Below, piece after piece: positions 31-22,356 of a stretch of 32,000 nucleotides of DNA. The notes below the pieces were generated by a model that worked only from the letters and a program-made list of their open reading frames with translations, was not told where the DNA came from and ran no database searches. Position numbers and translations under genes: made by a program. The stretch lies in the NCBI RefSeq assembly GCF_040409795.1, contig NZ_CP099571.1, positions 1,713,439 through 1,745,438 of the forward strand, read 5' to 3'. The first letter of the stretch is position 1, and every line of letters begins with the position of its first letter. Source of the DNA: Polynucleobacter sp. MWH-UH19D. GTDB taxonomy: Bacteria; Pseudomonadota; Gammaproteobacteria; Burkholderiales; Burkholderiaceae.

Positions 31-47
31 TGTCGTTTTAAACGACA
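31..47. repeat. 17-bp palindrome copy P1 (TGTCGTTTTAAACGACA, centre T)
   Basis: Perfect palindrome read directly; lies 3 nt beyond the stop of the minus-strand ORF 51..812. Confidence 0.95.
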
Positions 48-50
48 TTT

Positions 51-812
51 CTATCCCACCTTAACTTCATAAGCCTCTTTGTAAATTGGCTTAAGAACTC
101 TTACCAATGAATCTACATCCATTGCGGCTAAGTTGGATCTACCGCCCAATGTATCAACTTTCATCATGAAATTTCTAAAATTATCCCTCTTGAAAGGCGT
201 ACCAGATGTGTAGGCTTCATCAGTAATTTTAAGAATGGCGGTTGTGACATTAATTGCATTTGCTGAACTATTTCTCTCTAAAAGAGATGATCGATAGTCA
301 CTATTGAAAAATAGAATTTCAAAAACCTTATCGACAGAGAAAGCTGGTATGTTTTTAGCCATATATCCCATCCACCACAAGCGAGAGATAGCGTTATCTC
401 TCATGCGACCACGGACTCCATTGGCAAACCAGTGACTTGAGATGTGATTCTGAATCTTTTCTTCGCTTGATGATTTGAATGGCCATCTTTCGTTTACATA
501 TCCTTTAAACAAGGAGAAACATAAAGTAACCCATAATCTTTCATCGGTTGCCTGGGCGGGTGTTAGTTCAGGCAAAATTTGAAGAATCAATTTACAGTTT
601 TCGGTATCTCCATTTAATTCCTGAGTTGCCCCCTTTGGCATCACCAGAGTAACCTCAGTATTAACTTTGTAATTTGTTGTCACAAGAGACAAATGCAATT
701 CATCACACAAATCATCAAATGACAGTTCCAGTAATGCTGGATTCGCCAAGAGAGATCTCTTGAGCTTTAGTACGCTCTCAGTTTTTAAAACGCTATATAA
801 GTTATCCGACAT
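51..812 (-). CDS. Hypothetical protein, last gene of the methyltransferase/GHKL operon
   Basis: 253-aa ORF whose start overlaps the upstream gene by 11 nt (translational coupling). No motif I can name; contains W-rich segments (DERLWVTL, ISRLWWMGY). Confidence 0.75.
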   Translation of the reverse strand: MSDNLYSVLKTESVLKLKRSLLANPALLELSFDDLCDELHLSLVTTNYKVNTEVTLVMPKGATQELNGDTENCKLILQILPELTPAQATDERLWVTLCFSLFKGYVNERWPFKSSSEEKIQNHISSHWFANGVRGRMRDNAISRLWWMGYMAKNIPAFSVDKVFEILFFNSDYRSSLLERNSSANAINVTTAILKITDEAYTSGTPFKRDNFRNFMMKVDTLGGRSNLAAMDVDSLVRVLKPIYKEAYEVKVG

Positions 813-1632
813 TTCTAATCAACCTTTGTACGCCATATTTGGCAACTAGTTTTTGTGAATTTATGCAGAGTTCATTGAAATCACTCTCTTCGCTAATATG
901 CACACCGAGAGTTTCGAGCTTTAACTTCAAGGCCCTTACCCACTTATATCCATCAGCGTCTTCATTTTTAATGATGTATTCCAAGGCTGCATGTATACAG
1001 TCTTTATATACAGACATTGCCAACATAGGAGCCTTATCCCGCTCCTCCCTACATACATCCCAAACATGTCGGAATTTTTTACCCATCAAAATGATGATCA
1101 TGTCTTGCTCAAGACTAAAGCGATAAGTCTCTTCTGGAATTTCAGTTGATGTCTCAACCCTAACCAATGATTCAAACTGCAATTTATCAAATTCAATGTA
1201 TCGAATTTGCGGATCATCGATTGCCATAATGTCACCCGTTTGAAGTGCGAATGGCTCTTCGCCAAACTCTTCATTCAAGTCTTCAGATTGAAAACTTTGA
1301 ATATTCTGGGAAACAATAACCAAAGGAGTAAACGTAACTTTTCCATATAACTGGCCCGTCTCAAAATCGATTTGCCCATCATTGCCAACTAAAAATACTT
1401 TTCTAAATAAAGTGTCGGAGCAATGGACATCAATTGCATAAGATGCCTTCTTGGCTACAATCAACTTTTGAATGTCATCGTTAGATAATAAAAAGCTATA
1501 GTCGAGAATGACATGCTCTGCTGGGCCCGCCATCTCCTTACGTGTATCCATCGTTGATTGAAACTCCGAGTCTAGATAATCATCACCTCGACCCAAAATT
1601 GGATATGGAAATGCCTTAATTATTGACTTCAT
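802..1632 (-). CDS. Hypothetical protein, third large gene of the methyltransferase/GHKL operon
   Basis: 276-aa ORF overlapping both neighbours (17 nt and 11 nt). No recognisable catalytic motif. Confidence 0.75.
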   Translation of the reverse strand: MKSIIKAFPYPILGRGDDYLDSEFQSTMDTRKEMAGPAEHVILDYSFLLSNDDIQKLIVAKKASYAIDVHCSDTLFRKVFLVGNDGQIDFETGQLYGKVTFTPLVIVSQNIQSFQSEDLNEEFGEEPFALQTGDIMAIDDPQIRYIEFDKLQFESLVRVETSTEIPEETYRFSLEQDMIIILMGKKFRHVWDVCREERDKAPMLAMSVYKDCIHAALEYIIKNEDADGYKWVRALKLKLETLGVHISEESDFNELCINSQKLVAKYGVQRLIRNVG

Positions 1633-3529
1633 GTGCCTCAGCCTCTATCGCAAAATCTACAGTCTTATCCGCAAAGGTTACTAATACATATTCCCTTTGC
1701 CCGCTAATTAGTTCAACGTCTATCGCAGTGACTGGCTTGTTATTAACTATCAAGCTAATCGGCTCACTTCCAATCTCACCAGATTTTTTAAATCTAATCG
1801 ACGCCAAACCTGTTATAGGAGAATCAAAGTAAATATAGGCTTGGTTAGAACCTGTCGCCCGCATCCTCAAGTTTTCTAACTTCTGATAATTTTTGGGTAG
1901 CCCTCCATGCGTCGGAGAAGATGGCCCAACAATCTTTTTACCCCCTTTTGGATCTGGCAAGTTGCCCCCCTTACCTTTTCGCTTCTTATTGCCGCCTCTA
2001 AGGCCACGCCCATCCATTTCTTCAGGGTCGCCATCACCCGCTTTGGGTTTATCTGAAGGAGTCGGTTTTGGCTTAAATGAGTAGTTTCCATTAGCTATCT
2101 GAATTGAAGCACCACGCTCTAATGTGCCACTACCTTCTTCTGGATTCTCAGAGATTTCAGAAAAAAGATCTTGGAGCTCATCTACAGTCACGCGATCTGT
2201 GGATGAATACTCTGCAAAACGTTTAAGTAGATCCCTTACAGCATTAGAAAATGTGTAATATTTTTTTTCGGCTTCTTTACGTTTTTGTAAATTGTCAATC
2301 CGATCAAATGCAAAATTATTATGCTCGGGATTTTCAAGTGTTTTCAGGGTTTCAGACCCATCCCCAGTTACACAAACAAAGAAATCAAAAGGCTTCAAAT
2401 TTGGAAATCTCTGCAACGCCGGTGCGGATCTTGTTATCAACATTCCATTTTCGCGAGCAATCGCTACTGAACGCCCTTCAACATCTTCATTCATCCTTAT
2501 GTACCAATCAATTCTTCCGAATTTAGGTATCTGTTGCTCGCCCTTATGAGTACTATTAACAACGGTTTCAATTGCCTGGAAACAATCTAACAAATAATCT
2601 TTATTAACCTCATCAAACTCTTGGCTCAATCTATCTTTGTAGTACTGATACTTTTCTTCGATATTTTGAGAATTTAATTCCTCGTCTTCACCAATCTTGA
2701 CGATTAAACTTCCTTTACGAATTGCATAGAAAAAGTTTGCTATTGCAGTAATAACAATAGAAGGATACGAATTCAAATTAAAAATAGTATGTGGAACAAA
2801 AATACTTGTACCTGTATTTTTTGAGAACTTTTCTCTAATATCTATTGCCCATTGCGGTATATCTAAGCCATCCAATGGAAGGCAGCCCGCAGGTATTCCA
2901 TAAAAACCCGTTCCTTGAGTCATTTCATGTTCAGTTTTGTTGTAAGACTGAAGGATGCTCTTACCCTGAAACCTATAAACGTGCTGATTATTTTGCTCAA
3001 TTTTCGTCAAATAAAAGAGTGCGCGAACATTGCTATTTGCAAAAGGTGCTTTAGAACCATGTCCAAATGACCCCAATGATGAAGCTGAAGTCTTTTGACT
3101 TAAGCCTGCACCCTTAGTCAAAGCGAACCATGCTCCATTAGGCCCGCCAATTGGGCCAGTTAATCCAGTCGTATTACTGTCGTGTATGCACAAAAAATTA
3201 ATTTTCTCTTCATCATTAATTAGTTTGATTGCGCGATCATAAAAATCAACAGCAGGATCGAGGTTTTGTTTCTTAGCAGTAGCTTTTGCTTGAACAAGAT
3301 GCTCCTCAAGCTCCGATACCTCTGGAACATCTTTTTTATCGATGCTAACTATATTGAATGAGACTGTAACTGGTTCAGTTCTCATCAATCCTGCATCTAA
3401 GCTGTTTTGAACAATTTCTCTCACGAGAGATGAAAGTCGATGCCCTTTAAAAGTGTCTATCCCAGAATCATTAAACCCTGCGGCTAGACCCCCTTGGTTA
3501 TCAGGAAAGTACCATTTCGCCTTTGACAT
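1616..3529 (-). CDS. GHKL (Bergerat-fold, MORC/Hsp90/MutL-like) ATPase with a Gly/Lys/Pro-rich linker and a C-terminal beta-rich domain
   Basis: N-box EIVQNSLDA (ExxxNxxD), HDSNTTGLTG (DxGxG-like) and GSFGHGSKA (GxxGxG lid) near the N-terminus. 637 aa; start overlaps the methyltransferase stop by 29 nt. Confidence 0.8.
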   Translation of the reverse strand: MSKAKWYFPDNQGGLAAGFNDSGIDTFKGHRLSSLVREIVQNSLDAGLMRTEPVTVSFNIVSIDKKDVPEVSELEEHLVQAKATAKKQNLDPAVDFYDRAIKLINDEEKINFLCIHDSNTTGLTGPIGGPNGAWFALTKGAGLSQKTSASSLGSFGHGSKAPFANSNVRALFYLTKIEQNNQHVYRFQGKSILQSYNKTEHEMTQGTGFYGIPAGCLPLDGLDIPQWAIDIREKFSKNTGTSIFVPHTIFNLNSYPSIVITAIANFFYAIRKGSLIVKIGEDEELNSQNIEEKYQYYKDRLSQEFDEVNKDYLLDCFQAIETVVNSTHKGEQQIPKFGRIDWYIRMNEDVEGRSVAIARENGMLITRSAPALQRFPNLKPFDFFVCVTGDGSETLKTLENPEHNNFAFDRIDNLQKRKEAEKKYYTFSNAVRDLLKRFAEYSSTDRVTVDELQDLFSEISENPEEGSGTLERGASIQIANGNYSFKPKPTPSDKPKAGDGDPEEMDGRGLRGGNKKRKGKGGNLPDPKGGKKIVGPSSPTHGGLPKNYQKLENLRMRATGSNQAYIYFDSPITGLASIRFKKSGEIGSEPISLIVNNKPVTAIDVELISGQREYVLVTFADKTVDFAIEAEAHEVNN

Positions 3530-4520
3530 TTTCTTCCTCTAATATTGTTTGAATAATTTTTTTAAATATTTCATCTGCTACATCTGTACAAATTGCATTT
3601 CCGATCATTGAAAGTTTTGAGCTTTCTGAAATTCCAGCTGGAAACTCAAATTCCTTCTTTTCAATGCATTGCAACCTCATCAACTCATCCACACTTAATT
3701 TACGAACACCAAAGTCATCGACTAAAAAAGGCACGTTATGGCCACCACCGCCCATATTGGCGGTTAATGTAGGGCAAACATTTTCAGGACATGAACGAGC
3801 ATCCACACGTCGAATTTGAAAGAGCCTATTTGTCCCATCCAATTCGGCGTTTCTTCTAATCATCCTTGCATATTTGTTCTCTTCATCAAGATAGAGTCTT
3901 GCTTCGCTTCTTTTATCTTTGTTGATGTATTTCCATAGATTTTTTTTACCCTTTTTTACTTCTGGAAATATGAACTTATTTTTCTTAAAATATTTTGAGT
4001 GTGTAGCAACTATGAATAATCTCTCTCGTCTTTGTGCTGTATCCCCGATTTCATAGCTATCCAATATTTGGGCGTTATTAATATTGACCCAGTAACCGGC
4101 CTTTCTAAGTTCATTGATTACGACTCGCAATCTTGCCCCGCCATCAAATAACTTCAAATTTGGAACGTTTTCAAGCAATAACACTTTTGGAGGGTTTGCC
4201 ATTTCCCCGCAAATTCTTGGAATCTCAAAAAACAACTTCCCACGCTCGTCATCAAAACCTAGATTTTCACCAGCCACTGAAAATGATTGGCAGGGAAACC
4301 CCGCAGACAAAATATCTATAGTTTCATTTAACTCGGGGAACTCCGATGGACAAACTTCTCTTACATCCCCCATAAACACAGTAGATGATGGGAAGTTGTG
4401 CCGTAGCGTAAGACAACAAGCATCATCCATTTCGTTTATAAAAACGGTTTCAACGCCGTTTCTTTGGGCAGCAAGAACAAATCCCCCCAATCCGGCAAAA
4501 AGAGCTACATGTCGATACAT
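3501..4520 (-). CDS. DNA (cytosine-5) methyltransferase
   Basis: Canonical C5-MTase motifs: FAGLGG (motif I), GFPCQSFS (motif IV, catalytic Cys), ENV (motif VI), QRRERLFIV (motif VIII) and C-terminal GNA (motif X). Confidence 0.92.
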   Translation of the reverse strand: MYRHVALFAGLGGFVLAAQRNGVETVFINEMDDACCLTLRHNFPSSTVFMGDVREVCPSEFPELNETIDILSAGFPCQSFSVAGENLGFDDERGKLFFEIPRICGEMANPPKVLLLENVPNLKLFDGGARLRVVINELRKAGYWVNINNAQILDSYEIGDTAQRRERLFIVATHSKYFKKNKFIFPEVKKGKKNLWKYINKDKRSEARLYLDEENKYARMIRRNAELDGTNRLFQIRRVDARSCPENVCPTLTANMGGGGHNVPFLVDDFGVRKLSVDELMRLQCIEKKEFEFPAGISESSKLSMIGNAICTDVADEIFKKIIQTILEEENVKGEMVLS

Positions 4521-4537
4521 TCAAAAAACCTTTAATT

Positions 4538-4786
4538 CTATTTTTTAGACTTATTTTTAAAGGTAAATGCTACCTGGCTTTCAGCTGAACCTGACTTATA
4601 TCTCTGTTTTGCGTTTTTCATTTCAGACTCAAGGGCATCAAACATCTCTTTTACATGCTCTTCGCTGTATGAATAATTTCGCGTATCACTTAGGTTTCCA
4701 ATAAGCCTAATTCGATTCATAGCTTCTGATACCCTTTTCTGGGCCAGGCGCTCAAACTTCTCATACTTCTCAGTATCTTTAGTCAT
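4538..4786 (-). CDS. Small helical protein, first gene of the methyltransferase operon (possible controller/regulator)
   Basis: 82-aa ORF with a GGAAGGA Shine-Dalgarno just upstream, 17 nt upstream of the methyltransferase gene on the same strand. Confidence 0.6.
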   Translation of the reverse strand: MTKDTEKYEKFERLAQKRVSEAMNRIRLIGNLSDTRNYSYSEEHVKEMFDALESEMKNAKQRYKSGSAESQVAFTFKNKSKK

Positions 4787-4901
4787 ATTTTTCCTTCCAG
4801 TGTTACTACAAATTTGATATATTTCTGTAATATATCATAAAATTATACTTAGATATAGAAATATTCATAATATATTTTTGCAATATTAAGGATATAAGTA
4901 C

Positions 4902-5204
4902 ATGAAATTATTACCTTTTTTCACAATACTATTTGCAACATTCGGGGCATATGCTCAGCCTTACAACCTAAATAGCTCCCCATACAACATGGAGAACTCG
5001 CCCTACAACATGGAGAACTCGCCCTACAACATGCGAAATAGCCCTTACAACATCGAGAACAGTCCATACAACTTAAATTCAACAAATGGGGTTTACGACA
5101 ATTCTGGCAATCGCATTGGTTATGAAGTTAAAGCCCCAAGTGGGGTTACAAACTATTTTGACAATAGCGGAAACAGGATTGGGTATACCCCAGCAAAAAA
5201 ATGA
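4902..5204 (+). CDS. Secreted small repeat protein (SPYN heptad repeats plus two DNSGNRIGY repeats)
   Basis: AAGGA SD; signal-peptide-like N-terminus MKLLPFFTILFATFGAYA; six PYN[LMI]xNS heptads encoded by 21-bp tandem repeats. Confidence 0.7.
   Translation: MKLLPFFTILFATFGAYAQPYNLNSSPYNMENSPYNMENSPYNMRNSPYNIENSPYNLNSTNGVYDNSGNRIGYEVKAPSGVTNYFDNSGNRIGYTPAKK
4958..5084 (+). repeat. Six tandem 21-bp coding repeats (cc[ct]tacaacatggagaactcg-like)
   Basis: Read directly; two adjacent units are identical (5001-5021 matches the preceding unit) and the outer units are degenerate. Confidence 0.85.
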
Positions 5205-5440
5205 TTGCATCCCTAGTAATTGCTATTGCTTTGGCGACAATCAAGCCCGAACCCGTCTTGATACGTAGCGCAATTGATCTTTCAAGAATCATTGGACTAC
5301 CAAGAATGAAGTCTTTTGATAAGCATATTTTGAAAACTGTCTACTTAAATGAAATGGATTCAAGTCAGACCTATCAATCCAATACAAGACGAGAATTTTT
5401 TAATAATTATTTCAGAATAAGTGCAACAAGAATTAGGTAA
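5201..5440 (+). CDS. Hypothetical small protein with a hydrophobic N-terminus
   Basis: ATGA start/stop overlap with the upstream gene; same-strand tight spacing with 5450..5794. Confidence 0.4.
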   Translation: MIASLVIAIALATIKPEPVLIRSAIDLSRIIGLPRMKSFDKHILKTVYLNEMDSSQTYQSNTRREFFNNYFRISATRIR

Positions 5441-5449
5441 GGAGAGAAG

Positions 5450-5794
5450 ATGCGTGACTATACATACATAGATGGCTATCGATTCACAATCTGGAACATA
5501 TATCGTAGCAAACGCTTTGATATTGACCGTCTAGATATAAATTTTGCTGATAAAGAGAAGCCTAACTTTGTCAGAGGATTGAGGGTGGTAGATCACAACG
5601 AATCGGAAACTTATTTACTTCATGGAGGAGATGCTGACAATCTAAGCTACAGCCTGTGTTACCTTCATCATGAGAACAAAGAAAATATTCCAGATTATTT
5701 TGATGAATACCTAATTCAAGCCACTTCCAAAAAAGAATATCTTGTCCATAAATTATTTGAAGAAGAGAAACCATTAGAAGTTGCCGTTCATTAG
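5450..5794 (+). CDS. Hypothetical protein
   Basis: 114-aa ORF with a strong SD (AAGGAGAGAAG before ATG). Confidence 0.65.
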   Translation: MRDYTYIDGYRFTIWNIYRSKRFDIDRLDINFADKEKPNFVRGLRVVDHNESETYLLHGGDADNLSYSLCYLHHENKENIPDYFDEYLIQATSKKEYLVHKLFEEEKPLEVAVH

Positions 5795-6030: not shown

Positions 6031-6047
6031 TGTCGTTTTAAACGACA
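6031..6047. repeat. 17-bp palindrome copy P3 (centre T)
   Basis: Perfect copy; it overlaps the stop codon and last three Val codons of ORF 6038..7015. Confidence 0.95.
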
Positions 6048-7015
6048 ACTTTAGACTTTCTTTTTCGACTTACACGCAATCTCAAATTAATATAAAACTT
6101 TCTTATGCGAATTAGCCAATTAAGCAGATGAAATAAGGCTTTTGGGAATACATTATCCAAGAAGACAAGCAATATCAAGCTATGTACAAGTAATAAAAAA
6201 TCACTTCCTATTAGATTTCCAAGATACGTATCCTCATCAACTGGCAGCATCATCCAACAAAAAATTGCCACGACTACTGCAAAAAGAATAATTACTCTTT
6301 TTGAGGCTTTATATCCAGCAATTTCTAAAAAATCCGTGCCAGTCACCTTAAGACTATTTTTGGAATAGCCGTCAAAGTAAGTCATTCTCTCTAAACTTTC
6401 GTCGAGAGTTCTTCCAAAGCATCCTTCCAAAAGGAATTTGACGGAATTTATCAGCACATCTAATAGCTTGGTAATAAAACCTGAAACAAAAGCCTTCGAT
6501 CTCAGGCCAATCCCTTTAACAAGATGCACTGAATCAATATGAGCCTCAAATAAGGTAACTAAAATTTTTACGCCTGGAACCAGCTTGTATGCATCATCTA
6601 CAAAGCAGTCCTTCTCTGAATCATAAAAATAAGACCCAATTAAATCCAAATCCATTGGTTTTGGAGTAGAAAAACTTATGGCAACAGAATCTTTAGTGGG
6701 GCAACTAGGATCATCATAGTCATAGTCAATATTTTTAGTCCTATATTTACTCATTACCGCAATACGAAATCTAAGCGGTATGTACCTATCTCCTTTTAAT
6801 TCAAACCTATTCTCATACACGGCCCAAATAACGGCTATGTTGTCTGGATTTCCCTTCTTATCCTTTGCTGGCTTGTATCTAATATCATTGGGATAATTTT
6901 TTTGAATCGAAAATCCGACCTTAGCATCGGTTAGCAACGTAGGGTCATCAAAGCCTGCGAAATTAATGTCGCCAAACTTATCTAAAAATTCTTGGGAATT
7001 TTGAAGGTATGCCAT
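6038..7015 (-). CDS. Hypothetical membrane-anchored protein (soluble N-terminal ~230 aa plus two C-terminal TM helices and a basic tail)
   Basis: 325-aa ORF; hydrophobic stretches VIILFAVVVAIFCWMML and FLLLVHSLILLVFL near the C-terminus. Confidence 0.65.
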   Translation of the reverse strand: MAYLQNSQEFLDKFGDINFAGFDDPTLLTDAKVGFSIQKNYPNDIRYKPAKDKKGNPDNIAVIWAVYENRFELKGDRYIPLRFRIAVMSKYRTKNIDYDYDDPSCPTKDSVAISFSTPKPMDLDLIGSYFYDSEKDCFVDDAYKLVPGVKILVTLFEAHIDSVHLVKGIGLRSKAFVSGFITKLLDVLINSVKFLLEGCFGRTLDESLERMTYFDGYSKNSLKVTGTDFLEIAGYKASKRVIILFAVVVAIFCWMMLPVDEDTYLGNLIGSDFLLLVHSLILLVFLDNVFPKALFHLLNWLIRIRKFYINLRLRVSRKRKSKVVV

Positions 7016-7104: not shown

Positions 7105-8397
7105 ATGTTTTTCGCCACAAAAAACATGCTTAAAGAAACAGAAGTGCTTGCCCTTTTCTTTCAAAGCGCCTCTACCTCTGAAAAATCACCCCAACTCAAA
7201 TACCTAGAAAACTTAGCTACTGGCAAGCTAGTACATATGAGGGATGGCAACATCACTTTGTATAAGCGAGAGCGCAGTAAACAGTGGCAAATGCGCTTTA
7301 GGCTTTATGACAAAAAGTGGCACAGAGTCAGTACAGGCTATGAAGATCTGGAATACGCCAAAAAGAAAGCTGGCGATATTTACGATAGAGCCCGCTTTAT
7401 GGAAGAGCTGGGATTGCCACCCCTCAATAAACGCTTTGATTCAGCTGCAGAGTCAACCAAGATAGAACTACAAGGTGATTTAGATAATGGCGTAGGCAAA
7501 AAGATCTATGTAGATTACATCGCAGTAATTGATAACTACCTGATTCCCTTCTTTGGCAAGAAACACTTAACTAACATTAACCACCAAGATATTGCTGAAT
7601 ATGAAGTATGGCGAGCAGACAAGATGAAACGCAAGCTCATGCGCTCAACCATGATGACGCACTTCTCCGCATACAACAGAGTGTTTGATTCAGCAATCAA
7701 GCGTGGCTGGCTAAGCGATAAACACGCCGTACCTAGACTGGGTACTAAAGGGGAGAAAAGCACTCCGAGGCCAGCCTTTACTAGAAAAGAAATTGACTAC
7801 TTGCTGGAATTCTTAAAAACCTGGAGTCAAGGCGGCAAAAATCAAGAAGCTCACCAAGGCAGGCTATTGCTTCGCGATTACATCGAAATATTGATGGCCA
7901 CAGGAATGCGCCATGGTACAGAAGCATTTAACATCCAATGGCGCCATTTAGAGTGGCATACAGATAAGAGCGTTAGATACTTACGCATATGGGTGAATGG
8001 CAAAACAGGCGCTCGCTGGCTAATTGCAAGACACGAAGCTGTTCCAGTAATAGAGCGACTTAAAGCTCGCTTTACAGAATGGGATCACTTAACGCTTGAT
8101 CAATTGCTTGAAGAAAAGCGTGAAGAGTTTGTATGGCGACATCCTAATGGTGAGCGCCCATATGACTTTGTGAGCAGCTTTAAGTGGCTTATGAAAGACT
8201 CTGGATTATTGCTATCGACTACAGGGCATAAGCGCACCATGTATAGCTTCAGACATACCTACGCTACCTTTAGCTTAGTGGAATGGGGCATGGATATTCA
8301 TACGCTAGCAAAGCAAATGGGCACTTCCGTACAAATGCTGGAACGCTTTTACAGCAAACTAACTGCAACGCTAGCAGCTGAGAAACTAGCGGGATAG
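7105..8397 (+). CDS. Tyrosine recombinase / phage-type integrase
   Basis: Catalytic-domain signatures: ATGMRHGTE (Arg I), SFRHTYAT (H-x-x-R) and ERFYSKL (Tyr nucleophile region). The start is uncertain; an internal Met at ~7237 is possible. Confidence 0.85.
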   Translation: MFFATKNMLKETEVLALFFQSASTSEKSPQLKYLENLATGKLVHMRDGNITLYKRERSKQWQMRFRLYDKKWHRVSTGYEDLEYAKKKAGDIYDRARFMEELGLPPLNKRFDSAAESTKIELQGDLDNGVGKKIYVDYIAVIDNYLIPFFGKKHLTNINHQDIAEYEVWRADKMKRKLMRSTMMTHFSAYNRVFDSAIKRGWLSDKHAVPRLGTKGEKSTPRPAFTRKEIDYLLEFLKTWSQGGKNQEAHQGRLLLRDYIEILMATGMRHGTEAFNIQWRHLEWHTDKSVRYLRIWVNGKTGARWLIARHEAVPVIERLKARFTEWDHLTLDQLLEEKREEFVWRHPNGERPYDFVSSFKWLMKDSGLLLSTTGHKRTMYSFRHTYATFSLVEWGMDIHTLAKQMGTSVQMLERFYSKLTATLAAEKLAG

Positions 8398-8533: not shown

Positions 8534-8797
8534 TTAAAGCACAACTTTCTGTGCGCTTAATTTTTTGATCTTAGCTTGAGCTTTTTGAATTTGTTGCGCT
8601 TTACGCTCTGTATCCAATGCTTGCTTAGCAATTTGAGCATTACGCTTAAGTGAGTTAATGCGGGCTTGTGAAGGCGTCAATGGTTTAGTAGGTTTGAATT
8701 CGTAAAAGCGCATACGATTATTTATATGCGCCTTTACATGACCACTACTTACCAAATCCAGCACGAACGGCACCACTGGCTTGCTCAATTTGAGCAT
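8534..8797 (-). CDS. Hypothetical small basic protein
   Basis: ORF with a GGAGAG SD before the ATG at 8797; overlaps the upstream gene by ~53 nt. A shorter form starting at 8713 (MRFYEF...) is an alternative. Confidence 0.45.
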   Translation of the reverse strand: MLKLSKPVVPFVLDLVSSGHVKAHINNRMRFYEFKPTKPLTPSQARINSLKRNAQIAKQALDTERKAQQIQKAQAKIKKLSAQKVVL

Positions 8798-17588: not shown

Positions 17589-17629
17589 TTTGTAGGCAAA
17601 TTACCCATTTTGGGCAGTTTGCCTACAAA
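17589..17629. promoter_or_regulatory. 12-bp perfect inverted repeat (TTTGTAGGCAAA-N17-TTTGCCTACAAA), candidate operator
   Basis: Read directly; lies in the divergent promoter region between the Sel1 gene and the HTH regulator gene. Confidence 0.5.
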
Positions 17630-17657
17630 CCTGTTTTTTTATGAGTATTCTCAAGTC

Positions 17658-18092
17658 ATGGATAAAGAAGTTTCTTTAAAACTCAGCGGTCTTTTATTTG
17701 CAATAAATGATCACTACATCAACCATTTGATTCGGATTTATCGCTTATTTGAAGGAGATATTGAATGTTGCATTGTGCTTGGCGAAATTGCCCATCACAA
17801 TGTACAAAACGTTTATTCCGAGCTAACCGAAGAAAGATTAATGCTTAGTGAGGTAGCTACTAAGTACCGGGGAAGTAATGCTCACTCAATTAGCCTATCA
17901 ACCGGGATCCCCAGAGAAACAGTTAGACGAAAAATTAGAAAACTCGAAGAAATGGGATTTATACAGCAAGATGAGAAAAAACAACTTCGTATTACTAACC
18001 TGCCGCCTATCAAGCTAGAAGAGTTCTCCATGGAGTCTTTAGGTTTATTTATGGGTCTAGTTGACCGACTAAAAAAGCAAGATTATTTATAG
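17658..18092 (+). CDS. Winged-helix/HTH transcriptional regulator
   Basis: HTH-like segment ISLSTGIPRETVRRKIRKLEEMGFI. The first in-frame ATG is at 17658; the track start 17610 is TTG inside the inverted repeat. Confidence 0.65.
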   Translation: MDKEVSLKLSGLLFAINDHYINHLIRIYRLFEGDIECCIVLGEIAHHNVQNVYSELTEERLMLSEVATKYRGSNAHSISLSTGIPRETVRRKIRKLEEMGFIQQDEKKQLRITNLPPIKLEEFSMESLGLFMGLVDRLKKQDYL

Positions 18093-18101
18093 GATGACGC
18101 T

Positions 18102-18275
18102 TTGAATTCTTATGAAATACTTTCAATTGAAAATGCTGGCGGTAAATACTGGGTAGTTACTTATAAGTTAAGTAATGGCCAAACCGAGATTGAAACTATT
18201 GACGCCTTAGACCATCATGAGGCATTTGTGAAGTTTCGCAATCTGATGATTGAACAACAAAAAGCTCGAAAGTAA
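18102..18275 (+). CDS. Possible 57-aa protein (TTG start)
   Basis: Hand-translated: (M)NSYEILSIENAGGKYWVVTYKLSNGQTEIETIDALDHHEAFVKFRNLMIEQQKARK. AGGA lies 7 nt upstream of the TTG. Confidence 0.3.
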   Translation: MNSYEILSIENAGGKYWVVTYKLSNGQTEIETIDALDHHEAFVKFRNLMIEQQKARK

Positions 18276-18287
18276 TTACTAGTTTTT

Positions 18288-18386
18288 TGTCGTTTAAAAC
18301 GACACTCTGTTACACACCCGCCCAAATCGGTCTTAGACCCTTGTATTAGCTGGTGAATTGATTAGTGCGATCTATTACCACTCCGA
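18288..18386 (+). repeat. Composite ~100-bp element B (17-mer P8 at 18288-18304, centre A)
   Basis: Same architecture as element A; the first 32 nt and the ATTAGTGCGATCTATTACCA block are nearly identical to A. Confidence 0.85.
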
Positions 18387-18398
18387 TAATGACTTGCT

Positions 18399-19220
18399 TT
18401 ATTTAAGTCTTAATATTCGTATAGCCCCACTCAATACTAAAAATCCAATGGCTAAGCCAATAATCCAGTCGGGAACTGGACTGTTAAACCAAGCAACCAA
18501 TACACCAGCAATGATGACACCCAAATTCGCCAAAACATCATTAGCAGAGAAGATATAGCTTGCCCGCATATGAACGCCATCGTTCTTACGCTTAGATATC
18601 AAGAACAAGCAGGTCACATTGACAGCTAACGCCAACACAGAAATCCAAATCATCGTATTGGCTTCGGGTTCGGCACCAATATAGATCTGATAGCCTGATC
18701 GCCAAAGAGCGCCTACGGCTAAAAATAACTCAACAACGCCTGCTAATTTCGCGGCCTTTAATTTATTAGAGGCAGCTTTTCCAACAGCATATAAAGCAAC
18801 TCCATAGACTGCCGCATCAGCAAACATATCCAAGGCATCAGCAATAAGTCCCGCCGACTCTGCCAACCAACCAGCAATGATCTCTACAAAGAACATGGCT
18901 CCGTTAAGCACCAAAAGCCAAATCAAGACTTGAAGCTCTCTTGCTGTTTCTTCTGTATCTTTAGGCCGAATGGGCACAGAATCAACAGATTTATTGCTCT
19001 GAATGCTTGCCCCAAAATTTAACGGCTCTAATTTTGCTAATACATGATTAGGCTCTTCGGAGTGACAAATCACCACTTTGCGATTAGGAATATCAAAATT
19101 CATTGAATGAATTACCAATGAACCCAAGACCATCCTAATCATTTGCTCTTCAGAGGGGCAATCCATAGCCGGCACATGAAATGTTGTTTCAACTACAAGT
19201 TGGGATTGTTTTTCTTTCAT
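18399..19220 (-). CDS. Cation diffusion facilitator (CDF) transporter with an N-terminal HMA-like domain and no C-terminal cytoplasmic domain
   Basis: Six TM segments. TM2 has DALDMFAD and TM5 has SANDVLAN (a D-D/N-D metal site). The ORF ends right after TM6, and the N-terminal ~95 aa look ferredoxin-like. Confidence 0.75.
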   Translation of the reverse strand: MKEKQSQLVVETTFHVPAMDCPSEEQMIRMVLGSLVIHSMNFDIPNRKVVICHSEEPNHVLAKLEPLNFGASIQSNKSVDSVPIRPKDTEETARELQVLIWLLVLNGAMFFVEIIAGWLAESAGLIADALDMFADAAVYGVALYAVGKAASNKLKAAKLAGVVELFLAVGALWRSGYQIYIGAEPEANTMIWISVLALAVNVTCLFLISKRKNDGVHMRASYIFSANDVLANLGVIIAGVLVAWFNSPVPDWIIGLAIGFLVLSGAIRILRLK

Positions 19221-19264
19221 ATATTCGGAATGTATAGGATTTCATAATACTTTCATACAAGAAT

Positions 19265-19273
19265 TGCTATAAT
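19265..19273 (+). promoter_or_regulatory. Extended -10 promoter element (TGcTATAAT) for the riboswitch/exporter transcript
   Basis: TG-n-TATAAT lies ~7 nt upstream of the predicted start of the riboswitch P1 helix. Confidence 0.45.
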
Positions 19274-19279
19274 TGACAC

Positions 19280-19390
19280 GTCACTAGGGAGTAGCCTCTC
19301 TTCTCTACAGAAGATGGCTTACATCAACATACTTGAGCTTCTAGCTTATGGTGTAAGCGGTTTAGATACTTGGCAAGACTTTTGACTACA
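19280..19390 (+). promoter_or_regulatory. yybP-ykoY (manganese) riboswitch aptamer
   Basis: Conserved blocks AGGGAGTAGC (19286-19295), CAACATAC and TTGGCAAGAC (19370-19379). A closing GTCA...TGAC P1 helix is present, and the element sits upstream of a UPF0016 gene. Confidence 0.8.
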
Positions 19391-19432
19391 AACACTTACT
19401 TAGGCTGTGGGTGCGTTGTAGTCATTTGTTTA
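19384..19432 (+). terminator. Riboswitch expression-platform terminator candidate
   Basis: GACTACAA (19384-19391) pairs with TTGTAGTC (19416-19423) and is followed by ATTTGTTT. The 5' arm overlaps the 3' strand of aptamer P1. Confidence 0.45.
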
Positions 19433-19457
19433 TGTCACAGCCTAGAGGACTATCAAA

Positions 19458-20030
19458 ATGGATTCACTCTTAATCTCCACTGGCGTTGTGGCTCTTGCCG
19501 AGATGGGCGATAAAACCCAGTTACTGGCATTTATTCTTGCGGCTCGCTTTAAAAAGCCTGTTCCGATTATTTTGGGTATTCTTGCGGCAACCATCATCAA
19601 CCACGGCTTGGCTGGCGCATTAGGCGCCTGGATTACAGCAATGGTCAACCCTGAAGTATTGCGCTGGATATTAGGCGCCTCATTTATTGGTATGGCTATT
19701 TGGACTTTGATCCCAGACAAGATTGAAGAAGAGGAAACGCAGGTTGCTAAACACTTGGGCGTATTTGGAGCAACCTTTATCACTTTCTTTTTAGCAGAGA
19801 TGGGTGACAAGACTCAATTGGCTACTATCGCCTTGGCCGCTCACTATGTCGCTCCTTTAGCCGTTGTTGTAGGAACGACTTTAGGAATGCTCATTGCGGA
19901 TGTACCAGCAGTATTTGTAGGCAATAAGTTCGCCAAGAAGATTCCGATGAAGCTGGTTCACTCTATTGCGGCCGGCATCTTCGCAGTAATGGGCGTACTC
20001 ACATTACTTGAAGTTGATAAATTATTTTAA
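19458..20030 (+). CDS. UPF0016 / GDT1 (TMEM165) family cation (Mn2+/Ca2+) transporter
   Basis: Two E-x-G-D-K-T-Q motifs (AEMGDKTQL twice) in a 190-aa six-TM protein. Confidence 0.9.
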   Translation: MDSLLISTGVVALAEMGDKTQLLAFILAARFKKPVPIILGILAATIINHGLAGALGAWITAMVNPEVLRWILGASFIGMAIWTLIPDKIEEEETQVAKHLGVFGATFITFFLAEMGDKTQLATIALAAHYVAPLAVVVGTTLGMLIADVPAVFVGNKFAKKIPMKLVHSIAAGIFAVMGVLTLLEVDKLF

Positions 20031-20039
20031 GGAGGCGTT

Positions 20040-20390
20040 ATGACTTGGATTATCACCAAATACTTACTGACAGCCGGAATGGTTGTATTCATTAGTGAAG
20101 TTGCCAAGCGAAGCGATAAGTTAGGTGGATTCATTGCGGCATTGCCCTTGATGACATTACTTACTCTTACTTGGCTATTCATTGAGAATCAATCGGAAGA
20201 GAAAATAGCAAACCACGCTTATTACACTTTTTGGTATGTGATCCCGACACTACCGATGTTTTTACTATTTCCCTATTTGCTACCAAGACTAGGTTTTTGG
20301 CTCACTATGGGAGCAAGTGTTGTGGTGACAGTTATTTGTTTCGGGCTCTTTGCCTTATTGATGAAAAACTTTGGGGTTGAACTGTTGTGA
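20040..20390 (+). CDS. Small membrane protein (DUF3147-like)
   Basis: 116 aa with four hydrophobic segments, 9 nt after the UPF0016 gene. Confidence 0.6.
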   Translation: MTWIITKYLLTAGMVVFISEVAKRSDKLGGFIAALPLMTLLTLTWLFIENQSEEKIANHAYYTFWYVIPTLPMFLLFPYLLPRLGFWLTMGASVVVTVICFGLFALLMKNFGVELL

Positions 20391-20395
20391 TGATT

Positions 20396-20494
20396 TGTCG
20401 TTTTAAACGACAATTCAATACACACCCACTAGATCACACTCTAGCTTCTTGATTTGCTTGGTGAAATAATTAGTGCGATCTATTACTACTCCGA
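20396..20494 (+). repeat. Composite ~100-bp element C (17-mer P9 at 20396-20412, centre T)
   Basis: Shares the 17-mer, ATACACACCC and ATTAGTGCGATCTATTAC blocks with A and B. The middle differs but keeps a short hairpin (CTAGA-N6-TCTAG). Confidence 0.8.
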
Positions 20495-20516
20495 GAAAAG
20501 CCTTAAGTCGCAAAAT

Positions 20517-21410
20517 CTATTTAAATAAAACATGAGCGGCGCCAAAAATAAATTCCTCAAACTCTCTCTTATTCCACGAGATATCAGCTCCGCCATTTAT
20601 TAATCTATGCTGCATATTTGCACAGAACAATTTAGAAGAGTCGACTCTTTTAAGCCAATCAATACAATTTATTACTGCCTCAGTGTAGGTGCTTGTATTG
20701 AATAACTCGTCTGGGACGTTACTTAACATTCCCTCAATAAAGTATGAAGGCGCACTACCAATATTAATAATTTTCTGTTCAACTAACTTTTTTCTTAGGT
20801 TTTTAAAAATTCTAATCACATGCTTCAACATTCCAAGAGTTCTTTTGTTTTTTTCTACTAGATAATCCTTGTGAAGCTGAGGAAAGTTAACAATATGAGT
20901 GCCATCTTTTTTATAAAAACTAATTCCCTCAAGATAATCATCTGGTTTCATTGGATCAAAAGAAAAATATTTTCGGTGCTTGATTGCGACTAATACATCA
21001 GCTTTGCGACGATTTCCTTTGGGTGATATTTGTATGGCCTTCGAGCCAATTACAACCTCAGAATCGAATCTTGCTATCAATAAATTAACTACATCACCTC
21101 TAAAATCAGAATATTTATATGCCGCACTAATAGGAAATGCGGCTTGAAATTTATTCTTTTGATTATCAGAAATTAGGCTTAAATCATATGTAAATGCGGA
21201 ATCAAGTCGAATGATGATGTCTACATCACTCTCTCCAATGACATTTGTGTCATTTGCATAAGATCCCTGTAAAAAGATCTTTGTGGCTTTTGATTGATAG
21301 GCTGCATTTCTATCCTCAAGGACGCCTCTAATAGTCGAATATGTCTCCTTTGATGTTACCTGGGCGCCTATAGAAGACATAGACTCCAACTCTAACTCTG
21401 AAATTGGCAT
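20517..21410 (-). CDS. CD-NTase/SMODS-like nucleotidyltransferase (CBASS cyclase candidate)
   Basis: Pol-beta NTase signature QGSYANDTNVIGESDVDIII (GS...DxD) and a third acidic residue in KADVLVAI. SD GAGGGAG lies inside the end of the patatin gene. Confidence 0.7.
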   Translation of the reverse strand: MPISELELESMSSIGAQVTSKETYSTIRGVLEDRNAAYQSKATKIFLQGSYANDTNVIGESDVDIIIRLDSAFTYDLSLISDNQKNKFQAAFPISAAYKYSDFRGDVVNLLIARFDSEVVIGSKAIQISPKGNRRKADVLVAIKHRKYFSFDPMKPDDYLEGISFYKKDGTHIVNFPQLHKDYLVEKNKRTLGMLKHVIRIFKNLRKKLVEQKIINIGSAPSYFIEGMLSNVPDELFNTSTYTEAVINCIDWLKRVDSSKLFCANMQHRLINGGADISWNKREFEEFIFGAAHVLFK

Positions 21411-21420
21411 TTCGACTCCC

Positions 21421-22356
21421 TCATAAATTCAAGGCTCTTAGGGCCACTTCATATTTTCTAAAGGAGTCTCGACCAAATTGAAATAATAAGTTCAATTTCT
21501 TGATATCAGACTCCAACAGGTCAACAGCTAAAGCACCCTTAGTTGAAGACTCATTAATTCTTACAATCGGGACATTTTTGAATATCAAATTCGTCAACTG
21601 CTCCATAGAGCGGGTATTCATATTCAAGGTTTTTTTAAGTAGCCTCTCTAAGGTCCAAATAAATATCATTCTCTGATACCAAGGCTTTATCGGCTCTATA
21701 TAGTCACCAACTCCCACACTTACAACACGCAAATCGAATTCAGAGTAATTAAGGGGGCCTACTGCATCACTGATTGAAAAAAGAGTCGGGTTGTTTGCGA
21801 TGTATCCACCGTCTATTAGCTCCCATGTAAGGCCATCATCCGCCTGCACTACTTTTCTCTCAAACAATGGATACGCCGAACATGATGAAACTACAGCATC
21901 AGCCAAAGAACACCCAAATCCAGGCTTAAAACTGGCAGTCATACCGTGCGCCTGTTCTAGGTTTGACTTAAAAATCATCGGCTTCTCTTCCAGCCACTTT
22001 GACGCAACAATACCCAGCTTAACTTTTAAATCTGAAACGGTGTAATGCCCAAATAACTCATTCGCATATAACTCCAACTTTTGAGTTCTTCCATTTGAAG
22101 TTTTTTGGGACATTATTTCTGGAATAAGGCGCCTGTATTGATCAACGATCTCACTTACAGACTTACCAAGACCAAGCATGGTTGCAATAATTGCACCTGT
22201 ACTGGTTCCATAAATTAGATCAAAGTGCAAACCAAGGGGTTTATCCCCTAAAGCTGCCTCAAGCTCTGAAAGTACCCCGAGGGTATACATGCCCTTCGAC
22301 CCTCCACCATCGAGGCTAAGAATCTTGCATAGGGGCTTCTGAGGGGATGTATTCAC
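21421..22356 (-). CDS. capV: Patatin-like phospholipase (CapV-like CBASS effector)
   Basis: Oxyanion DGGGSKG, nucleophile GTSTG (GxSxG) and DGG(Y) Asp motif. GTG start; directly upstream of the NTase gene, as in capV-dncV. Confidence 0.8.
   Translation of the reverse strand: MNTSPQKPLCKILSLDGGGSKGMYTLGVLSELEAALGDKPLGLHFDLIYGTSTGAIIATMLGLGKSVSEIVDQYRRLIPEIMSQKTSNGRTQKLELYANELFGHYTVSDLKVKLGIVASKWLEEKPMIFKSNLEQAHGMTASFKPGFGCSLADAVVSSCSAYPLFERKVVQADDGLTWELIDGGYIANNPTLFSISDAVGPLNYSEFDLRVVSVGVGDYIEPIKPWYQRMIFIWTLERLLKKTLNMNTRSMEQLTNLIFKNVPIVRINESSTKGALAVDLLESDIKKLNLLFQFGRDSFRKYEVALRALNL

Follow-up and report, generated by a model that had tools for sequence, protein, structure and literature searches.

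Can a cytosine methylase, a divergent ATPase, and two accessory proteins make up a restriction-like defense system when no restriction nuclease is recognizable among them? This question is raised by an operon in a 32,000-nucleotide (nt) chromosomal stretch from the freshwater betaproteobacterium Polynucleobacter sp. MWH-UH19D; the whole stretch is called the window here. The operon consists of five minus-strand genes, a small-protein gene (s) followed by those for the methylase (M), the predicted GHKL-type ATPase (A), and the accessory proteins B and C:

4538-4786, minus strand: s, 82 amino acids (aa), first gene of the operon in the table of open reading frames (ORFs)
3501-4520, minus strand: M, 339-aa C5 cytosine DNA methyltransferase (PF00145, TIGR00675, PADLOC MTase_II)
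1616-3529, minus strand: A, 637 aa, PDC-M33A, predicted divergent GHKL-type ATPase with a C-terminal extension (PADLOC PDLC04582)
802-1632, minus strand: B, 276 aa, PDC-M33B (PADLOC PDLC04583)
51-812, minus strand: C, 253 aa, DUF6339/PDC-M33C (PF19866, PADLOC PDLC04586)

According to the ORF table, 17 nt separate s from M, and the following genes overlap by 29 nt (M/A), 17 nt (A/B), and 11 nt (B/C), exactly the layout given in the initial annotation of this DNA. Judged by its sequence, M is translationally coupled to A. In the NCBI annotation s, A, and B are hypothetical proteins, M is a DNA (cytosine-5-)-methyltransferase, and C is a DUF6339 family protein. The operon ends 50 nt from the window edge. 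On an identical metagenomic contig (L001), the gene after C encodes an unrelated 190-aa SHOCT protein, so no further gene belongs to the operon.

We propose that s-M-A-B-C is an ATP-dependent, methylation-gated, restriction-like defense module of the MORC/paraMORC kind, carried on an integrative island, and we put the probability of this reading at about one half.

A constant triad and its methylase

When the operon proteins were compared with PADLOC-DB v2, A, B, and C matched the models PDC-M33A, B, and C (PDLC04582, PDLC04583, and PDLC04584-87). The match of A had an E value of 6.5e-99 (residues 4-592 on profile positions 3-574 of 627) and that of B one of 1.2e-38 (residues 5-261 on positions 5-266 of 289); C matched PDLC04586 at 1.3e-36 and the three further M33C models as well. 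The core is therefore already catalogued, only as an anonymous and unvalidated candidate. The initial annotation had suggested that the operon follows the logic of a self-marking methylase with an ATP-driven sensor or effector and may be an undescribed system. We judge the logic right, while "undescribed" was too strong in view of these matches.

We compared 13 genome loci, 80 metagenome loci, and loci obtained by exact look-up, about 98 in all. They came from Polynucleobacter and other Burkholderiaceae, marine Rhodobacteraceae and other Alphaproteobacteria, one acidobacterium (Vicinamibacteraceae), and many freshwater Actinobacteria, including Microbacterium. The distribution of A-B-C is patchy over four phyla, and a scan of viral contigs with A found no relatives. 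The three genes are inseparable and their order is constant, with B directly after A in all 82 assessable loci and C after B in 78 of 78.

Of 78 loci, 73 contain a C5 methylase, and the remaining five are short contigs; in 38 loci it is the gene immediately upstream of A, in the same orientation. Distances between pairs of M sequences follow those between the corresponding pairs of A, B, and C (Pearson 0.88 to 0.89, with 0.89 for M-A; Mantel p = 0.001); the correlation is still 0.72 among deep pairs, and that between A and B is 0.98. This makes the methylase a long-term partner of the triad, not a casual neighbor. The check on co-occurrence that the initial annotation had proposed thus came out in its favor across phyla.

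The small protein is less constant. Homologues of s were found in 20 of the 78 loci, in four phyla (including Beta- and Alphaproteobacteria, Acidobacteria, and Actinobacteria), directly upstream of M or A. Where M is not upstream, s immediately precedes A (L020, L092, L094, and L101), which ties it to A-B-C. It is a facultative fifth component, which qualifies the five-gene operon of the initial annotation.

Five loci carry two A-B-C triads in tandem (L012/L104, L043, L044, L045, and L048). The second triad of L048 has its own s and its own M. In L104 (L012 extended, 9007-20643) and L043-45, which are of marine Rhodobacteraceae type, the triads are convergent, and genes for AIPR and Vsr lie between them, directly after the first C. 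The side-by-side duplicates suggest a one-to-one matching of triads and methylases, of the kind found in restriction-modification systems. By this analogy we argue that tandem triads have the appearance of restriction-modification systems differing in specificity.

The proteins of the operon

M matched PF00145 over its full length (3.6e-61; 207.8 bits against a cutoff of 22), as well as TIGR00675 (5.6e-60; 203.7 bits against a cutoff of 100.65) and PADLOC MTase_II (8.4e-77). Its nearest solved structure is M.HhaI (9e-28), and the catalytic motifs GFPCQ and ENV are present. On this sequence evidence M is a complete C5 cytosine methyltransferase, in agreement with the initial annotation.

The family of A comprises at least 647 clusters at 90% identity, with a Pfam domain in none; one member gave a stray Sacsin match (E 0.11). 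We divided the protein into four regions:

2750-3529, minus strand: A ~1-260, predicted Bergerat-type ATP-binding domain with motifs I-IV (invariant motifs, hhalign)
2093-2749, minus strand: A ~261-479, conserved middle region with invariant E399-x3-H403, R410, and GMLITR (conservation profile)
1895-2092, minus strand: A ~480-545, Gly/Lys/Pro-rich low-complexity linker (sequence; poorly conserved columns)
1619-1894, minus strand: A ~546-637, small conserved C-terminal domain, NLRxR...FDxPxxG...GE (conservation profile)

Both Bergerat-fold strings quoted in the initial annotation occur in A, and GHKL motifs I to IV are invariant and in canonical order in 31 diverse members of the family. They are E38-x3-N42-x2-D45 (motif I), D117-x-N119-x2-G122-L-x-G125 (motif II, in an atypical D-x-N-x-x-G-L-x-G form), G153-S-x-G156-H-G158-S-K160 (motif III), and G240-T241 (motif IV); motif I is separated from motif II by an insert of about 45 residues. 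Both the catalytic Glu and the Mg-binding Asn are intact. Searches of Pfam, NCBIfam, and the PDB with single sequences, the 31 members, the consensus, and an insert-deleted version gave no GHKL match. A and its 31 relatives matched neither HATPase_c nor HATPase_c_3 even at E <= 10; we take these to be the Pfam families expected to cover MORC-type GHKL domains. The flanks were also searched for another GHKL gene that could serve as a profile, and none was found.

Profile comparison with hhalign placed motifs I, III, and IV in the N-terminal 300 columns of A colinear with those of Escherichia coli HtpG (probability 11%). The same N-terminal subalignment put motif I in register with that of MutL (29%); together with a decoy null, it supersedes an alignment of A to MutL alone, which had recovered only motif I, at 10%. 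The null consisted of 400 unrelated proteins, whose scores had a maximum of 25.0, a mean of 15.0, and a standard deviation of 2.8. The N-terminal profile scored 33.5 against MutL (z = 6.6) and 27.8 against HtpG (z = 4.6). Because both scores top all 400 decoys, we accepted A as a probable, very divergent GHKL ATPase.

By position, the middle region of A would fit a transducer or S5-like domain. The C-terminal domain gave a weak, partly low-complexity match to PDB entry 4les (E 0.026). A PD-(D/E)xK site at D382...E393-x-x-K396 was considered and rejected, because E393 varies within the family and the residues are atypically spaced. In one relative (L033; 2968-3279 and 4397-6100), A appears to be interrupted by some 1.1 kb of sequence, which may be an insertion or an artifact of the assembly.

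The AlphaFold2 model of B (predicted local distance difference test [pLDDT] 81) is rich in beta structure toward the N terminus and ends in a helical bundle. A Foldseek search against the PDB gave no meaningful match (best E 4e-3; template modeling scores of the listed matches about 0.25 or less), which suggests that B does not have a B3, SRA, or PD-(D/E)xK fold, as far as Foldseek tells; its sequence profile also had no match in the PDB. Residues D18, T74, E122, G133, Y170, S207, Y209, K210, D211, and W231 are at least 95% conserved over 55 loci.

C belongs to DUF6339 (PF19866, 1.5e-37; 129.4 bits against a gathering threshold of 23.2), a superfamily of 1,585 representatives at 50% identity, nearly all of them stand-alone and about 250 aa long. 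Its AlphaFold2 model is all-alpha (pLDDT 86; predicted template modeling score 0.82), and the protein is rich in Arg, Asp, Glu, and Trp. Foldseek found no match for the model in the PDB (best E 2.4) or in BFVD (best E 3.2). At least 95% conserved across both clades of the family (described below) are D69, N72, D90, E91, W94, R109, W110, H127, R134, R144, W146, R209, and R213. The initial annotation had raised the possibility that B and C would turn out to be ordinary restriction endonuclease subunits of a described type. The profile and Foldseek searches of B and C gave no such match, and we do not take the two for subunits of that kind.

Four longer DUF6339 proteins (P0386, P0392, P0416, and P0418; 347 to 375 aa) have a C-terminal extension of about 100 aa with the pattern FPNTP...LL...KP...EF, and this extension resembles the C terminus of a 393-aa protein encoded in L104 (19462-20643). 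An HRDC-like domain in these proteins was suspected by eye; Pfam does not support it, and we make no such claim. L052 encodes a second, divergent DUF6339 paralogue (2040-2675, minus strand; 211 aa; PF19866, 3e-11) between M and A, on the opposite strand.

The small protein s is a conserved helical protein of about 80 aa with invariant F11, L14, A15, R18, L32, S33, N37, Y38, Y40, and F74. A PDB sequence search had no match. Membership of the HEPN/DUF4145 group was rejected, because the DUF4145 matches were sub-threshold only (three of nine members; best E 0.0098) and the Rx4-6H motif is not conserved.

The likeness of A to MutL brings up a different role for the triad, namely, repair or maintenance of 5-methylcytosine: a MutL-like GHKL protein and its partners would process T:G mismatches arising from 5-methylcytosine deamination, or otherwise service the methylase, as an alternative to Vsr. 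The C5 methylase is the sole universal partner of A-B-C, MutL is the best-scoring GHKL comparator, Vsr occurs in just 7 of the 78 loci, and the conserved acidic, His, and Arg residues of the all-alpha C could form a glycosylase-like or mismatch-binding site. The parallel of MutL and VSR with paraMORCs has also been stressed (PMC2292703). We nevertheless hold this role to be quite improbable. About 1,170 codons would be a costly answer to a task that takes Vsr about 150, and Vsr and A-B-C stand together in L011, L012, L020, L043-45, and L048. Adjacent duplicated triads make little sense for generic repair, the distribution is patchy and island borne, and PADLOC flags the triad through its embedding in defense loci. 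The repeated recruitment of B3-domain restriction nucleases by relatives of the operon points to an attack on DNA.

Nucleases: none recognized here, several in relatives

No restriction endonuclease was found among the operon proteins and the upstream ORFs scanned with Pfam, NCBIfam, and PADLOC, nor in the gene list of L001, and no nuclease-family gene is in view around the window operon. The description "without a recognizable nuclease" in the initial annotation therefore holds for the window locus; it does not hold for actinobacterial and some marine relatives, whose clusters include a type II restriction endonuclease that has a B3-like domain of the NgoFVII type.

Clustering of A gave two superclades. 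Clade I, with the Proteobacteria and Acidobacteria and thus the window, has the composition [s]-M-A-B-C. Clade II consists of Actinobacteria (nine clusters at 45% distance) and has an extra protein of 404 to 427 aa, R, which matches the PADLOC type II restriction endonuclease model PDLC03479 (9.2e-68) and has the NgoFVII C-terminal B3-like DNA-binding domain PF20731. No fewer than five gene orders with R were seen: R-A-B-C with a divergent M, M-R-AspBHI-A-B-C, A-B-C-M-R, R/M in divergent orientation to A-B-C, and R likewise divergent to M-A-B-C. The R and A genes of L083 overlap by 4 nt.

In the marine loci L035, L036, L038, and L068 an NgoFVII-family PLD+B3 enzyme lies between M and A, with PF09565 and PF20731 detected in L035 and L068; in L011 and L020 such an enzyme stands beside a second methylase. 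L020 (Microbacterium hydrocarbonoxydans) has s-A-B-C without a methylase of its own, next to a separate minus-strand cluster (12148-16521) of a C5 methylase, an NgoFVII-like PLD R, a 560-aa protein with a FokI cleavage domain (2.1e-6), and Vsr. Relatives have thus repeatedly recruited nucleases with a shared B3-like DNA-binding domain. Upstream of M-R(PLD+B3)-A-B-C in L068, we noted a gene for a 529-aa protein with an N-terminal Macro domain (39-1628, plus strand; 3.4e-27).

Another nuclease, a 5-methylcytosine-dependent endonuclease of the AspBHI/MspJI family (PF18062 and Mrr_cat; PADLOC mREase_II, 2.5e-145), is encoded in 21 of the 78 loci at no fewer than five positions. AspBHI-like genes were recorded in L002, L008, L014, L015, L023-25, L030, L058, L060-63, L065, L066, L073, L074, L076, L081, L083, L091, and L100. 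The closest relatives of the window operon (84 to 87% identical; L002, L008, L023-25, and L030) have this gene about 1 kb upstream of s. A blastn comparison with L002 found no remnant of it anywhere in the window, and an obligatory subunit role was rejected for the window locus on this ground. Since the association of MspJI-family genes with neighboring C5 methylases is already documented, and unexplained (PMC2938202), we did not count the AspBHI-like gene as a subunit.

These neighbors nonetheless allow the view that the window locus is an incomplete system, in which a separate nuclease (B3-domain restriction endonuclease, AspBHI-like enzyme, or AIPR) is always needed and has here been lost or lies elsewhere in the genome, the operon being inactive or working in trans. 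The lack of the AspBHI-like gene of the closest relatives would agree with this, as would the presence of a nuclease-family gene nearby in 12 of 15 loci with long flanks. The other three, L006, L064, and L092, show M-A-B-C on long contigs with no nuclease gene in view, the five genes of the window are intact and under conservation, and AspBHI/MspJI-family genes adjoin C5 methylases regardless of A-B-C, so that they need not be subunits. We regard an incomplete system as distinctly unlikely.

How might the operon work as a methylation-gated module? M would mark host DNA at its target sites. ATP binding would dimerize A, as in GHKL proteins, and A, B, and C would assemble into a clamp or a looping complex directed at unmarked DNA, with s associated with A-B-C as a small subunit of structural or regulatory function. 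In the minimal form, either C would supply the DNA-damaging activity or the complex would block replication without cleavage. The acidic, His, and Arg residues conserved in C (D69, D90, E91, H127, and the Arg cluster) make it the leading candidate for catalysis in the minimal form; a cleavage-free mechanism of blocking or compaction may operate instead.

An alternative keeps the defense role and drops restriction. A-B-C may be a guard or abortive-infection module that monitors the methylase or the methylation state and answers phage interference with growth arrest or death, with no restriction of unmethylated DNA of its own. PrrC plays such a guard role for the EcoprrI type I system. In Actinobacteria, M and R already make up a type II system complete in itself, to which A-B-C is added in many arrangements, and no nuclease is recognizable in A, B, and C. 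HEPN-type neighbors also recur: AIPR right after C in the marine loci, and the 393-aa L104 gene before the second triad, which encodes an RNFCSH (Rx4H, HEPN-like) motif and has a sub-threshold Abi_2 match (E 0.0075). M, on the other hand, is coupled to A and stands early in the operon, and its co-divergence with A-B-C extends to loci that lack R; this is the layout expected if M protects against its own partners. Nothing points to a toxic effector, and we consider the guard role unlikely.

Several points weigh against a methylation-gated restriction module. The defense role is drawn from genomic context. The GHKL call for A has no backing from any curated model, and its hhalign probabilities are 11 to 29%. 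With no nuclease fold recognizable in A, B, and C, and no structural neighbors of B and C, the effector step is a guess. The actinobacterial M and R could by themselves be the whole type II system, with A-B-C as an add-on of another role, and A-B-C would need a way to recognize the sequence that M does. Four loci (L020, L094, L096, and L101) have s-A-B-C without an adjacent methylase, and in L104 the 393-aa non-methylase gene occupies the methylase position of the second triad.

Island setting and known systems

The operon lies on a low-GC integrative island that spans window positions 1 to about 14000; the G+C content of the operon region is 36 to 40%, compared with 42 to 47% in the remaining window. 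The flanking features are as follows:

4787-4901: AT-rich divergent intergenic region, probable operon promoter region (from the sequence)
4902-5794, plus strand: three small divergent genes (100, 79, and 114 aa), no family match
7105-8397: tyrosine-recombinase-like gene, island gene beside the operon
8745-9182: DUF6641 gene, island gene
10161-10757: second Phage_integrase gene, island gene
13006-13665: AAA ATPase gene, island gene

We infer that the minus-strand operon promoter lies in 4787-4901; a consensus promoter scan of this region found, as its sole promoter-like site, one on the plus strand (4814-4843). The same element family, rearranged, bears the operon in the Polynucleobacter contigs L002, L003, and L008, and L002 shares with the window a single conserved block of 5.7 kb (window 61-5773). 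The families of the three small divergent genes are present in five to six Polynucleobacter loci and travel with the cassette in Polynucleobacter only; these genes are probably outside the system. Together with the window integrases, the AspBHI-like, AIPR, Vsr, Mza-like, and DruA neighbors of the relatives place the gene set on mobile and defense islands, which supports the defense role proposed in the initial annotation.

Other observations concern the surroundings. The 100-aa ORF (4902-5204, plus strand; no family match) has a signal-peptide-like N terminus and tandem NSPYNMENSPYN repeats. A 325-aa ORF (6038-7015, minus strand; no family match), with hydrophobic, transmembrane-like C-terminal segments, sits where close relatives have the AspBHI-like endonuclease gene. 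Farther away, a 297-aa protein (20517-21410, minus strand) has a SMODS/nucleotidyltransferase domain (PF18144, 5.7e-6) and adjoins a 311-aa ORF (21421-22356, minus strand); the two may be a CBASS-like or other nucleotide-signaling pair, unrelated to the operon.

GHKL ATPases of the MORC/paraMORC type were placed in restriction-modification operons, and predicted to be components of them, in 2008 (Iyer, Abhiman and Aravind; PMC2292703). The predicted architecture of A resembles theirs, with an N-terminal GHKL domain with intact ATP-binding motifs and then a conserved second region of about 200 residues, where MORC and paraMORC proteins have an S5-fold domain in which a basic residue is conserved. 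So do the operons, with their cytosine methylases, Vsr, AIPR, and PLD ("HKD") and B3 ("VP1/RAV") nucleases, and the sporadic, laterally mobile distribution. The signature of paraMORC2 is an ExxxH that is strongly conserved in the C-terminal portion of its S5 domain (PMC2292703). The invariant E399-N-P-x-H403 of A fits this pattern in a comparison with the published signature only, and A may correspond to paraMORC2. The sole string in A with a superficial similarity to the MORC S5 motif GhXhhpXXRhl, at which no search was aimed, is GMLITR (362-367). Differences are that A lacks a HATPase_c or HATPase_c_3 match, that no SF2 helicase is linked here, and that the families of B and C are unnamed in the text of PMC2292703.

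Other known systems are less close. The operon is like Mza in having its methylase ahead of a predicted GHKL ATPase and two accessory proteins, and in marine relatives AIPR and Vsr come directly after C. Mza differs in that the five operon proteins have no PF10593 or PADLOC Mza match and include no AIPR, which follows C in marine relatives only, and in that neither A nor its 31 relatives gave a HATPase_c_3 or MutL-like GHKL match at the cutoff used above. In contrast to classical type II restriction-modification, the window methylase has no adjoining cognate restriction endonuclease gene among the proteins scanned. The ATP-dependent restriction systems CglI and NgoAVII combine M, a PLD-B3 R, and an ATPase (PMC4267653, PMC4267654, PMC5861437). 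The present family shares with them a C5 methylase with an NTPase and, in some loci, a PLD+B3 R (in or beside the cluster in L035 and L068, nearby in L011 and L020), while the actinobacterial R has the same B3-like C-terminal domain and is translationally coupled to A; the PLD+B3 R protein is absent from the window. GHKL elements with HEF_HK or Response_reg_2 domains are tied statistically to C5 methylases and type II restriction-modification and were proposed to derive from paraMORCs (PMC8011034). They have HATPase_c_3, HEF_HK, and receiver-like domains, none of which was detected here.

PDC stands for phage defense candidate, a class predicted by guilt by embedding in defense loci and mostly unvalidated (10.1101/2024.09.26.614923); a cold-seep study validated other PDCs, not M33. 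A literature search found no paper on PDC-M33, on DUF6339, or on GHKL together with cytosine methyltransferase and anti-phage, and no experiment on PDC-M33. The window operon agrees with PDC-M33 in the nearly full-length matches of A, B, and C and in their contiguity, with a gene order shared by about 80 other loci. It differs in that the catalogue entry has three genes and no description, the methylase, s, and the optional B3-domain nucleases being outside the entry as far as its models show. New with respect to the entry are the obligatory, co-diverging C5 methylase, the facultative s, and the alternative nuclease partners, along with evidence for A as a GHKL ATPase and the lack of PDB structural relatives for B and C, to which BFVD adds none for C.

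With four core genes, a strictly conserved composition, and natural versions with and without a classical nuclease, the system gives a good experimental handle on how a GHKL ATPase couples a DNA methylation mark to an attack on DNA, and on the function of DUF6339 (about 1,600 representatives at 50% identity) and of the B family. If the nuclease-free version is active, it would represent a restriction mechanism independent of the known nuclease folds, or a new nuclease fold.

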